Assembly: GCA_964543385.1 (NCBI GenBank)
Contig: CAZIYE010000001.1
Location: 390,001 to 422,000, forward strand
Source: an uncultured Candidatus Saccharibacteria bacterium
Lineage (GTDB): Bacteria; Patescibacteriota; UBA1384; XYA2-FULL-43-10; 1-14-0-10-43-13
DNA length: 32,000 bases
Direction: 5' to 3'
Shown here: positions 30,217 to 32,000 of the stretch, in pieces
Numbering within the stretch: the stretch's first letter is position 1
Layout of the letters: each line of letters opens with the position of its first letter
Position numbers and translations under genes: made by a program
Notes under the pieces: generated by a model
What the model was told of the DNA's origin: nothing
Database searches by the model: none
The model's input: the letters and a program-made list of their open reading frames with translations, nothing else

Positions 30217-30426
30217 CTACTCATTAATCTTTTTAGCTATTTTTCTTAAATCCTGCAAACAGGCTTTGCAGCCAGAACCAGAGATTAAATTTTCAAATTC
30301 CTCTTTTGAAACGAGATAAGCAACCGACTTTGAATACCTATTAACTTCATAAATTTCCCCTGCTTCAACTTCCTTAATAATTTTCGAAAGGTGATTTTGT
30401 AATTCGTTTGTAGTAATTTTTTTCAT
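30217..30426 (-). CDS. Phd/YefM-like antitoxin-fold small protein, with no toxin partner
   Basis: ITTNELQNHLSKIIKEVEAGEIYEVNRYSKSVAYLVSKEEFENL matches the Phd/YefM N-terminal pattern from memory. iscS begins 24 nt downstream. Confidence 0.5.
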   Translation of the reverse strand: MKKITTNELQNHLSKIIKEVEAGEIYEVNRYSKSVAYLVSKEEFENLISGSGCKACLQDLRKIAKKINE

Positions 30427-30442
30427 ATATGTTTATGGTTAT

Positions 30443-30490
30443 GTAATATAACAAGTAATATAACAAGTAATATAACAAGTAATATAACAT
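30443..30490. repeat. Tandem 12-bp direct repeat GTAATATAACAA x4 (last copy ends in T)
   Basis: Read directly. It occupies the leader of the Phd-like gene, and the last copy contains the candidate -10. Confidence 0.95.
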
Positions 30491-30509
30491 TTAAGGAATT
30501 GCCTGTCAA
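30481..30509 (-). promoter_or_regulatory. Candidate sigma70-like promoter of the Phd-like/isc/folD operon
   Basis: Minus strand has TTGACA (30509-30504), a 17-nt spacer and TATATT (30486-30481). Confidence 0.4.
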
Positions 30510-30520
30510 TTAGTAAACAT

Positions 30521-30574
30521 AAAACGAAAACGAGCCCTGGTACATCATGTACACAGGGCCCGCTCGGATTTTTG
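30521..30574. terminator. Stem-loop terminator at the left border of island 4, with T-tracts on both strands
   Basis: Imperfect stem CGAGCCCTGGTACAT / ATGTACACAGGGCCCGCTCG. It is flanked by AAAACGAAAA on the left (GTTTTCGTTTT on the minus strand) and GATTTTT on the right. Confidence 0.65.
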
Positions 30575-31843
30575 ACCTGAGCGCGAACGCCCGGGTCATC
30601 TCCCACTTCCTTTGTTCAGCTCCACCAGCGGTCCGATGACCACCTTCTGGAGCATGATCCTACGATTCTCGGGGTTCCGCAGCCTCCAGCTGTCTCCTCC
30701 CAGGAATCGGCGCTGCTCAGCAGCAGACAGCCCCTTCCAGCGTGGATCCTTCGCCTGAGCGGCGATCTCAGCATCGCTGTTTGGGACGCCGCACTCGAGT
30801 AGCACCTTGTTCTCGATCGTGTTATAACCACCGAGAACATCGAAGGTCTTTGCTAAAGTGCAGTTGACTGGCTTGCCGAACCGTTTCCGGCCATAGCCCT
30901 GATCAAGCAGAACATTCTCGATCAGTCCGGCCAGTTGTCCAGTGTTACCTCGTCGGTGACACTCACGCAGCCCTGACCAACCATTGCTACCCAACGAGTC
31001 CACATGGAGCTCGACGAATGCACTAGTGGTACAGTTCTGGTGATCAGACTGGGCTTGGGCAGCAGCTTTCGCTCGGTCGACTGTGTCAGAGGAGTTCTGC
31101 ATGGGGTTTCCCCCATATAAGACAGCCTCTTTTGGCAACGGCAGAGGATCTTTTGGCCCAGTCACCTGGTCCATTGATTCAGCCTCGGCCGCATATACCA
31201 CAGTCGCACCGAGAGCTTCAGCCATCAGGCCAAGCTCACGCGCCATCCGATAGGTATAGGCGGCTTCCCAGTAGGCTTCTCCGTCGAATACCCAAGAGCA
31301 TCCGACGTCGAGACCATAACTGGTTACAGCATCACGGCCACCATGACCGGGGCTAACGACCAGCAACTGACCCAATAGGGCGTTCTGGCCATATTGCGCT
31401 ACGATTGCCCTACGCTCTGCTTCGGAGAAGCTGAGTTTGGGGCCTCGGGGCAGAAGTTTGCCAAGGCCTTGCGGCTCCTGGGGCTCCTGCACAGTCGTGC
31501 CGGGCTTTACAGCCGGCTTGTGCTGGTTCCACGGGTGCCACAAGAGCACGCCGAGAACCAACAACAGGAAAAGACTTGCCATGATAACGCCGAAGCGGTT
31601 CTTAGCATAGTTTTCTGCATAGGAACTACCGAACCCTGCAAAGAACGCAATGACTGCCGCCATCAGGGCTTCGAGGACCATCCACAGGCCCTGCAAAAAT
31701 GCGAGGGCTTTGGGGTGGCGGCGCCCGAAGGTCGCCCAACGCTGTTGAATCCGCATGATTTTTCTCCTTTTCAGAGCTGCCACGTGCGGTTGGACAGCTC
31801 AAGTGTTCTTCTCGCCGGATGTGTAGAATTTCCAGCGTAGACT
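30531..31843. other. GC-rich compositional island 4
   Basis: About 1.3 kb of clearly GC-rich sequence with sharp AT-rich borders on both sides. Confidence 0.85.
30596..31756 (-). CDS. Membrane-anchored N-acetylmuramoyl-L-alanine amidase-like protein (Amidase_3/MurNAc-LAA-like)
   Basis: I prefer the ATG at 31756, which follows AAAGGAGA. Two N-terminal hydrophobic helices. Motifs VVSPGHGGRD, GEAYWE, ELHVDS and VLLECGVPNSD follow the Zn-amidase pattern GHGG...E...H...E. TGA stop lies 29 nt before the terminator. Confidence 0.55.
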   Translation of the reverse strand: MRIQQRWATFGRRHPKALAFLQGLWMVLEALMAAVIAFFAGFGSSYAENYAKNRFGVIMASLFLLLVLGVLLWHPWNQHKPAVKPGTTVQEPQEPQGLGKLLPRGPKLSFSEAERRAIVAQYGQNALLGQLLVVSPGHGGRDAVTSYGLDVGCSWVFDGEAYWEAAYTYRMARELGLMAEALGATVVYAAEAESMDQVTGPKDPLPLPKEAVLYGGNPMQNSSDTVDRAKAAAQAQSDHQNCTTSAFVELHVDSLGSNGWSGLRECHRRGNTGQLAGLIENVLLDQGYGRKRFGKPVNCTLAKTFDVLGGYNTIENKVLLECGVPNSDAEIAAQAKDPRWKGLSAAEQRRFLGGDSWRLRNPENRRIMLQKVVIGPLVELNKGSGR

Positions 31844-31849
31844 AGGTAT

Positions 31850-31878
31850 ATTATAGCATTTTTATATATAAAAGTCAA
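31850..31878 (-). promoter_or_regulatory. Near-consensus sigma70 promoter driving the amidase-like gene
   Basis: Minus strand has TTGACT (31878-31873), a 17-nt spacer and TATAAT (31855-31850). The leader to the ATG is about 85 nt. Confidence 0.5.
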
Positions 31879-31893
31879 TGGTAAAACATTGAC
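31874..31893. promoter_or_regulatory. Perfect palindrome GTCAATG-N6-CATTGAC spanning both divergent -35 boxes (candidate operator)
   Basis: Read directly: aaGTCAATGgtaaaaCATTGACaa. Confidence 0.5.
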
Positions 31894-31917
31894 AAATAGC
31901 TAATATAGTGATAAAGT
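31889..31917 (+). promoter_or_regulatory. Sigma70-like promoter driving the gene at the right window edge
   Basis: TTGACA (31889-31894), a 17-nt spacer and TAAAGT (31912-31917). Confidence 0.4.
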
Positions 31918-31970: not shown

Positions 31971-32000
31971 ATGCCCCGAAACTCTCGCAGAACACGTCGT
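31971..32000 (+). CDS. 5' end of an unknown GC-rich gene (MPRNSRRTRR...), truncated by the window
   Basis: GGAGGG (31961-31966) lies 4 nt before the ATG. Sequence is GC-rich from 31918 onward. Only 10 codons are visible. Confidence 0.35.
   Translation, partial: MPRNSRRTRR

Follow-up and report, generated by a model that had tools for sequence, protein, structure and literature searches.

We analysed a 32,000-nt window of the genome of an uncultured Candidatus Saccharibacteria bacterium (GCA_964543385.1; positions 390001-422000 of contig CAZIYE010000001.1, here C1; source genome G000, 902,808 bp in four contigs, 38% GC) and detected near its right-hand end a gene for a divergent membrane-anchored zinc enzyme of the Amidase_3 type (P0001), predicted to be an N-acetylmuramoyl-L-alanine amidase. 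It stands back to back with a gene for an unnamed protein resembling glycoside hydrolase family 25 (GH25; P0010). The two appear to form an accessory module in a variable chromosomal slot, between tatD and a Phd-like/Fe-S operon, that has been gained, lost and exchanged allele by allele. We read this cassette as a pair of tethered autolysins that would act on the cell's own wall, and give this reading a probability of about 0.6. The locus provides two tethered wall-cutting enzymes that can be put to the test, whose families databases barely recognise or leave unnamed, and a slot in which the gain, loss and exchange of such enzymes among lineages can be seen. A large part of bacterial diversity belongs to the Patescibacteria, which are found attached to other cells; to our knowledge, how they handle their own and their hosts' peptidoglycan is almost unknown.

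The amidase and its GH25-like partner

An earlier note on this DNA, made from the letters alone, had taken the 386-aa open reading frame (ORF) for an Amidase_3-type hydrolase with the zinc-ligand spacing of that family. A hidden Markov model (HMM) search matched P0001 to Pfam PF01520 (Amidase_3) at E=1.9e-5, though the score of 25.2 bits lies under the curated gathering threshold of 27; a six-frame search gave 26.1 bits, or 27.3 bits with neighbouring in-frame stretches, and the subfamily members in relatives scored 34-52 bits. Only eight homologues of P0001 were found among 5.8 billion clusters (best E=8e-66), all eight with a precomputed PF01520 assignment. An NCBIfam scan of P0001 returned no family, and a PDB search with the single sequence gave matches at chance level only (ArdC, FdnI). 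With a profile of seven close members the best PDB match was LytH (7tj4, E=5.8e-9), and AmiC2, Cwp6, CwlD and Ami1 were also found. The AlphaFold2 (AF2) model of P0001 has a predicted local distance difference test score (pLDDT) of 67.6, with 80-93 in the core blocks and values below 50 at residues 74-107. Foldseek searches with this model matched Ami1/Rv3717, AmiC2, LytH, CwlD and CwlV at E 3.5e-9 to 1.7e-6, and the best 21 matches (20 solved Amidase_3 structures and one integrative model) all had E <= 1e-4 and a probability of 1.0.

The motifs on which the note had relied (VVSPGHGGRD, GEAYWE, ELHVDS and VLLECGVPNSD) are all in the translation, and the putative zinc ligands and catalytic Glu are in register with LytH. 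H138 (in PGHGG), E164 (in WEAAYTY) and H251 (in LHVD) show no variation among 7-10 family members and line up with the LytH ligands, while E321 (in LLECG) is invariant in the family and aligns to the LytH LLELG motif. A 25-residue insertion after the catalytic Glu is unique to P0001. The two N-terminal hydrophobic helices and the Pro/Gln-rich linker that had been proposed are likewise present: the helices lie at about residues 16-42 and 54-73 (15-42 and 54-73 in the AF2 model; hydropathy 2.1-2.7), the membrane module that they form ends in a conserved LLWHPW motif, and the linker, of low confidence at 74-107, is the most variable segment of the family alignment. The motifs YEAAYTY, PLPLP and DSWRLR are common to P0001 and its orthologues in the Candidate Phyla Radiation (CPR), and this subfamily, of which we found no description in the literature, appears to be rare, divergent and found almost only in Patescibacteria.

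The cassette comprises the following features, in window coordinates:

30519..30565 (-): intrinsic terminator of the amidase gene (17-bp stem and T tract)
30596..31756 (-): amidase coding sequence, 386 aa (P0001), an ORF with homologues to E=8e-66 and with Pfam, profile and Foldseek matches
30599..31381 (-): predicted Amidase_3 catalytic domain, aa 126-386 (family and LytH alignments)
about 30707-30781 (-): 25-aa insertion unique to the P0001 allele
31345-31343, 31267-31265 and 31006-31004 (-): putative zinc ligands H138, E164 and H251; 30796-30794 (-): putative catalytic E321
31382..31537 (-): Pro/Gln-rich low-confidence linker, aa 74-125 (pLDDT and family alignment)
31538..31711 (-): N-terminal membrane module, with helix 1 (aa ~16-42), a short loop and helix 2 (aa 54-73) (AF2 and hydropathy)
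31757..31843 (-): 5' leader of ~87 nt with a stem-loop before the Shine-Dalgarno sequence
31850..31878 (-): amidase promoter
31874..31893 (unstranded): palindrome GTCAATG-N6-CATTGAC over both -35 boxes, a possible shared operator
31889..31917 (+): partner-gene promoter, TTGACA-17-TAAAGT
31971..32000 (+): start of the partner gene P0010, which continues to C1:423035

P0001 shares with LytH of Staphylococcus aureus and CwlD of Bacillus/Clostridioides the Amidase_3 fold, the H-E-H zinc site, the catalytic Glu, an N-terminal anchor and a tether. It differs from them in having two N-terminal helices instead of one, a Pro/Gln linker of about 50 residues and the 25-residue insertion, and in being paired or fused with a glycosidase, accessory and exchanged between lineages. 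LytH works with ActH and CwlD with GerS, both being partner-activated membrane-anchored amidases; no ActH-, GerS- or LytM-type activator was found in the cassette beside P0001, although no genome-wide search for ActH-like proteins was made. The best structural matches, Ami1/Rv3717 of mycobacteria and AmiC2 of Nostoc (Foldseek E 3.5e-9 to 3.5e-8, template modelling score to target 0.64-0.70), are only 14-17% identical to P0001 and are soluble or periplasmic enzymes that lack both the tandem helices and a linked glycosidase.

The earlier note had described a GC-rich island with this gene. The GC-richness stands, but the tract does not stop at the edge of the window: it extends to about C1:423050 and holds a second, divergent gene that had been missed. 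This partner is annotated with 354 aa, and its Arg-rich N-tail and one membrane helix form a clear anchor with the N-terminus inside and the C-terminus outside (hydropathy and charges). P0010 itself has no match in Pfam (including PF01183), PHROGs or the PDB. A full HMMER search returned 428 representatives at E <= 1e-3, and a profile of 60 members matched in the PDB the GH25 endolysin 3hmc (E=6.3e-5), placing F-D-x-E on the GH25 D-x-E motif; weak, sub-threshold PF01183 matches occur in nine of the 60 members (best 1.1e-4). Six close members of the P0010 family all have D151 and E153, and E153 recurs in at least 90% of the 60, while distant members carry PG_binding_1, PG_binding_3, LysM or SLH modules. 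The alignment to 3hmc, the PlyB-type endolysin of the Bacillus anthracis prophage LambdaBa04, covers about 127 positions, but the region of the first catalytic Asp of GH25 muramidases is unaligned, P0010 differs from them in having no Pfam GH25 match, and its family is unnamed in Pfam, NCBIfam and PHROGs. The link to GH25 was drawn from the sequence profile, with the AF2 model of P0010 left aside. A relation to GHL10/Cwp19 was also considered and rejected, with no PF02638 match in the 60 members and no Cwp19 in the PDB profile search.

The amidase and P0010 are linked because their domains are fused elsewhere, in the manner of a Rosetta stone: amidase and GH-like domains lie in one membrane-anchored chain in P0008 (of bacterium ADurb.Bin212), P0009, P0023 and the genome G026. 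These fusions of a GH-like barrel with Amidase_3 have the same domain families, order and membrane anchor, whereas in the source genome the two are separate divergent genes with an anchor each, and the amidase domains are 30-35% identical. The two genes are probably also co-regulated, because the -35 boxes of their back-to-back promoters form one palindrome (GTCAATG-N6-CATTGAC), which is kept wherever both genes are present (L005, L004) and in L039, and which we regard as a candidate for a shared operator. The partner promoter is kept in L039 and L040. What the locus adds to the fused systems is a split and probably co-regulated cassette, a variable slot with a deletion remnant, and statistical evidence for allele exchange.

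The 3' end of the partner gene is unusual in that the GH-like ORF has no stop codon before a perfect 12-bp hairpin, ACGAGACCGGCT-GGAT-AGCCGGTCTCGT, with a T-rich tail (C1:422912-422939; L001 3814-3841), and reads through it. The translation of this hairpin, ARDRLDSRS, is conserved in P0012, P0014 and P0015. In P0013, however, the region is translated in a different frame, so that what is conserved is the nucleotide hairpin, and the annotated tail of P0010 is probably not real.

The expression signals of the amidase gene proposed in the note were all recovered. The ATG at 31756 (stop codon 30596-30598, minus strand) is preceded by a Shine-Dalgarno sequence, AAGGAG (31769-31764), 7 nt before it, and the start context AATCATG is common to five of the six orthologous leaders (the sixth has A-TCATG). 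The promoter TTGACT-17-TATAAT (31878-31850, minus strand) matches at 11 of 12 positions, has a TG extension, and is kept in the L005, L004 and L002 orthologues and also in L039, where the amidase gene is deleted; the number of promoter-like sites across the region (7 against 4.9 +/- 2.2 expected) is not above chance. In the leader, a stem (GAGCTG 31800-31795 / CAGCTC 31779-31774; leader fold z = -3.0) lies just 5' of the Shine-Dalgarno sequence. Folded separately, five orthologous leaders have a counterpart hairpin with changed, compensating stem letters and a conserved GCAYG loop. RNAalifold gave no consensus on the six leaders, whose stems MAFFT had misaligned, and an Rfam scan of the whole cassette at E <= 1, leader hairpin included, returned no family. 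The terminator consists of a 17-bp stem (30565-30529) followed by TTTTCGTTTT (fold z = -4.9), and its nucleotide identity is ~88% to L039 and ~96% between L005 and L039.

The chromosomal slot and its divergent alleles

The gene order aaRS-EamA-TatD / (GH-like) / amidase / Phd-like / NifS / NifU / FolD (aaRS, aminoacyl-tRNA synthetase) is shared by G019 (L002), L004 (from the genus of G001), L005, G002 (L006) and G013, and amidase orthologues occupy the slot between TatD and Phd in four or more further genera of the Patescibacteria family to which the source genome belongs. The content of the slot varies, as far as its sparse sampling allows one to see: both genes are present in G000, G001/L004 and L005 (the last with an extra 385-aa ORF), the amidase only in G002, G019 and G013, the GH-like gene only in L039, and neither in G018 (325 nt) and G007 (509 nt). 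In L039 the amidase gene has undergone a clean internal deletion that left its promoter, its final ~15 codons and its terminator in place (~88% nucleotide identity to the source genome). The NifS tree has two clades, and the carriers are dispersed through one of them; among 400 genomes sampled from the phylum, the subfamily was identified only in G000, G002 and one other genome.

Several further peculiarities were seen at or near the slot. Between TatD and the GH-like gene, L005 has its extra ORF (1689-2846), which matches no Pfam family; the source genome and L039 lack it, which makes it a further indel in this slot. Between the terminator remnant and the Phd-like gene of L039 (~660-850) there is a GC-rich block of repeated palindromic units (GGAGGGGGGCTAGCTCT...) that may be an inserted repeat. 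The closest GH-like homologue (86%; L040 1147-1731) is followed by a low-GC gene resembling D-2-hydroxyacid dehydrogenase and not by TatD, so that half of the cassette also sits in a different neighbourhood. In the congener G001 (C98, C70; L010, L015, L017) the assembly breaks inside the amidase and the GH-like gene has an in-frame TAA, which could reflect strain heterogeneity or decay at the locus.

Conservation across the cassette is mosaic. The flanking proteins are mostly 57-92% identical to those of relatives (EamA 44-51%) and the GH-like protein is 76% (L005), 86% (L040) and 54% (G001) identical, while the amidase reaches 31-37% in the same comparison. P0001 is 38-42% identical to its syntenic orthologues, which share 52-72% among themselves, and sits on a long unresolved branch; its catalytic domain is about 34-40% identical to all orthologues. 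Compared with P0002, whose type of amidase L005 carries, the N-terminal membrane module is 60-73% identical and the catalytic domain mostly 13-47%, with 53% in the last ~35 residues. Nucleotide identity to L005 follows the same course: 63-88% in the GH gene, 70-84% in the promoter block, 61-78% in the 5' part of the amidase, 30-56% in most of the catalytic part (56-70% in its last ~100 nt; most windows flanking it have 61-88%) and 56-74% in the 3' end with the terminator. The source genome thus appears to carry a deeply divergent allele of the catalytic domain.

Identity at 4-fold degenerate sites of conserved residues, again compared with L005, is 0.60 in the GH gene but 0.31 in TatD (p=3.5e-5) and 0.31 in the catalytic part of the amidase (p=7e-4), both of which are saturated. 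The difference between the GH gene and TatD argues that the GH segment was exchanged after the genomes diverged. The catalytic domain is saturated, which implies a much older coalescence and argues for replacement of the allele over acceleration in place; the latter is disfavoured because synonymous sites are saturated there and not in the adjacent partner gene. L005 and L039 are 93-96% identical in EamA/TatD, yet L005 has an amidase of the P0002 type and L039 remnant codons of the P0001 type. From these last codons, the P0001-type allele exists in at least two lineages and predates the split of L039 from the source lineage. The source of the allele is unsampled but has the subfamily motifs, which points to another Patescibacterium.

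Place of action and origin of the cassette

In the mechanism that we favour, the two helices and the flexible Pro/Gln linker of P0001 would hold the amidase at the cell membrane, and both catalytic domains would lie outside the membrane, on the cell's own wall. The outside position is suggested by the fused proteins, in which amidase and glycosidase domains both lie on the outer side, and by one-helix and three-helix relatives, which also place the amidase domain outside. The own wall is the likely substrate because the enzymes are tethered, their linkers are short, no targeting domain was found and P0001 is the sole Amidase_3 in the source genome. The glycosidase would cut glycan strands and the amidase would strip stem peptides, in wall remodelling or the separation of daughter cells, as tethered amidases of the LytH/CwlD type do. 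The source genome encodes wall machinery of its own, with three transpeptidases of the penicillin-binding protein type and four Mur ligases. A second, canonical Amidase_3 of ~280 aa is present in half of the family's genomes; the source genome and its congener are without it.

Several observations weigh against this reading. P0001 alone departs from the family at four positions that are invariant in the other members, one of them the D before PGHGG, which is S here; together with a Pfam score 1.8 bits under the threshold these changes may mean a reduced or altered activity. The partner is GH25-like, an apparent wall glycosidase but not a member of GH25, and the relation is weak: its AF2 model is poor (pLDDT 56), and Foldseek gave no significant match, only local ones to GH25 structures (4krt, 2x8r, 1jfx). 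The caveat on topology that accompanied the earlier proposal is real, as five K/R residues in the N-tail of P0001 against two or three in the loop put the C-terminus, and with it the catalytic domain, in the cytoplasm, while the fused and one-helix relatives imply the outside. Finally, the accessory distribution, the loss in the closest relative and the swapping of alleles are unlike a housekeeping autolysin and would suit a host-facing or conflict role equally.

Such a role is the alternative that we take most seriously, although we consider it unlikely: the tethered amidase and the GH25-like enzyme would open host peptidoglycan at the contact zone of a presumed episymbiont, and allele swapping would track the wall chemistry of the host. 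The module is accessory, hypervariable and laterally exchanged, as such a tool might be, and in genomes that have it the canonical 280-aa Amidase_3 could do the housekeeping. A muramidase with an amidase is a classic lytic pairing, and that of Psm, a GH25 enzyme of the Clostridium perfringens phage phiSM101, with Psa parallels this cassette (PMC7999503); for the CPR predator Vampirococcus, secreted peptidoglycan hydrolases have been suggested as tools against the host wall (PMC8080830). Both enzymes, however, sit on uncleaved membrane helices with linkers of only ~20-50 residues, no secretion or targeting domain, wall-binding module or nearby immunity gene was found, and the source genome has no other Amidase_3 for its own wall. 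A cytoplasm-facing amidase would instead strip peptides from imported or recycled muropeptides made outside by the GH25-like partner, a salvage route that would suit a bacterium of scant biosynthetic capacity. The charge pattern favours N-in/C-in consistently across P0001-P0004, and with the partner clearly outside the two enzymes could act in series across the membrane; no permease adjoins them, though, and the fused and one-helix relatives have the amidase domain on the outer side with the glycosidase. Cytoplasmic muropeptide amidases such as AmpD belong to Amidase_2, and the Amidase_3 enzymes that we know of are extracytoplasmic, so we think this arrangement improbable.

The remaining alternatives concern the origin of the genes; the earlier note had raised the first, acquisition from a high-GC donor, and for the second the idea of a phage endolysin with a signal-anchor. 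If a GC-rich island had recently come by horizontal transfer from some high-GC organism that is not a CPR member, this would explain why the amidase gene lies 19 points above the backbone (57.3% GC and a GC content at third codon positions, GC3, of 0.62, against genome ORF means of 38.6% and 0.341 +/- 0.059) and has the fifth-highest GC3 of 651 ORFs. The catalytic domain also has no close relative (best identity 37-41%), and a distant one occurs in an Armatimonadota metagenome-assembled genome of 60% GC. The latter is the nearest relative found outside the CPR, at 26-32% identity. Against this, relatives share with the gene its position, promoter, leader, N-terminal module and terminator, the motifs YEAAYTY, PLPLP and DSWRLR recur in the CPR orthologues, a P0001-type remnant remains in L039, the AT-rich promoter block is native in composition, and members of the family have raised GC in every CPR genome even though their synonymous sites are saturated and a frozen donor signature should have decayed. 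No donor was found, and the site in the closest relative shows loss by deletion and not the lack of an insertion. The orthologues are syntenic in at least four genera, with orthologous promoter and leader, and the gene groups with relatives of the backbone, so that the acquisition from a high-GC donor is not upheld and import is very unlikely. Slighter still is the chance that the cassette is the remnant of a prophage lysis cassette, with signal-anchored endolysins and a holin-like two-helix N-terminus. A muramidase with an amidase is phage-like, the two-helix N-in/C-in module resembles class II holins, and many distant partner relatives are short, anchorless and endolysin-like with peptidoglycan-binding modules. 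Neither P0001 nor P0010, however, matches any PHROG family, tblastn gave no match in 50,697 phage records (INPHARED) and two IMG/VR scans gave none, the locus has no integrase, tRNA or att repeats, and the cassette genes have their own sigma-70-type promoters among housekeeping neighbours; the idea of a phage endolysin does not fit these results.

GC-richness and folding of the coding sequences

The amidase or fusion gene exceeds its flanks in GC in every genome examined, by about 6 to 19 points: 57 against 38% in G000, 57 against 46% in G019, 48.5 against 40% in L004, 53 against 47% in L005, 51 against 44% in G002, 66 against 43-48% in G013 and 60 against 41% for the fusion in G026. The genes are also unusually folded. 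With the amidase mRNA split in two, dinucleotide shuffles gave z = -4.8 for one half and -5.25 for the other, compared with -0.5 for NifS. Shuffles of synonymous codons, which keep the protein, codon usage and GC, gave the following z-scores; the shuffle sets were small (16-40) and minimum free energy predictions on RNAs of ~1 kb are approximate.

G000 amidase: -4.7
G000 GH-like gene: -5.75
L005 amidase: -7.5
L004 amidase: -8.1
L002 amidase: -5.3
G000 NifS (control): -0.04
G000 TatD (control): -0.03
L002 NifS (control): -1.8

Over the synonymous controls, whole genes show an excess in folding energy of about 12-18%, which reaches as much as 24% when the pairing span is limited. The excess is found already at spans of at most 40 nt (z -4.7, ~18% of the energy) and extends along the gene. 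One conserved RNA structure for the coding sequence was considered and rejected, since the predicted pairs are no better kept between orthologues than slid controls; the common property is foldedness and not one fold. The same property occurs in 11 of 14 other high-GC3 ORFs of the genome (z <= -2, down to -6.8), compared with two of 14 ordinary ORFs. GC-richness here goes with hairpin-dense coding sequence and not with demonstrable foreign ancestry, and it is a property of the gene family wherever it is located. For genome scans this is a caution, as a GC-rich island does not equal foreign DNA at this locus.

What maintains the foldedness is a matter of conjecture. Selection for strongly folded mRNA might give dangerous enzymes a long-lived or slowly translated message. 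More broadly, the GC-rich islands of this AT-rich CPR genome might mostly reflect a density of local hairpins that is maintained across whole genes, with genes for wall hydrolases and surface proteins of Patescibacteria resembling the genome-scale ordered RNA structure (GORS) that Simmonds and colleagues reportedly described in 2004 in some RNA viruses, even while they are swapped between lineages. We put this forward tentatively, at odds well short of even. Likenesses to GORS are the large folding excess, its extension over the whole coding region and the conservation of the property but not of individual pairs, and the folding significance of the cassette genes is at the level expected of structured viral RNAs rather than of bacterial genes. 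These are, however, cellular DNA genes for wall enzymes. Two observations weaken the case for selection on the message: the excess is almost equal on the two strands, some genes showing a modest bias to the sense strand, and individual hairpin pairs are not conserved between orthologues. If the proposal were true, hairpin density might throttle translation, prolong mRNA life or protect DNA or RNA during exchange, an undescribed layer of gene organisation, and a functional foldedness could be a general way for minimal cells to control hazardous genes. In the literature we found no description of hyper-folded GC-rich genes in CPR bacteria; what the locus adds is a hairpin density conserved across the orthologues of one gene and common to most GC-rich ORFs of the genome.

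The hyper-folded high-GC3 ORFs include those at C1:156656, 168521, 169297, 557537, 247268 and 287889 and at C2:110455, several of which have a signal peptide or a lipoprotein-like N-terminus. A PyrF-like gene at C1:369960 is an exception (z -0.6), and some of the shorter ORFs may not be genes.

Downstream of the amidase terminator, a 69-aa gene of the Phd/YefM fold (30217-30500; Pfam E=7.6e-10) stands at the head of the NifS-NifU-FolD genes, with TTGACA-17-TATATT and four 12-nt repeats (GTAATATAACAA) before it. No toxin partner accompanies it. The Phd-like gene was identified upstream of NifS in 14 of 22 genomes of the family.

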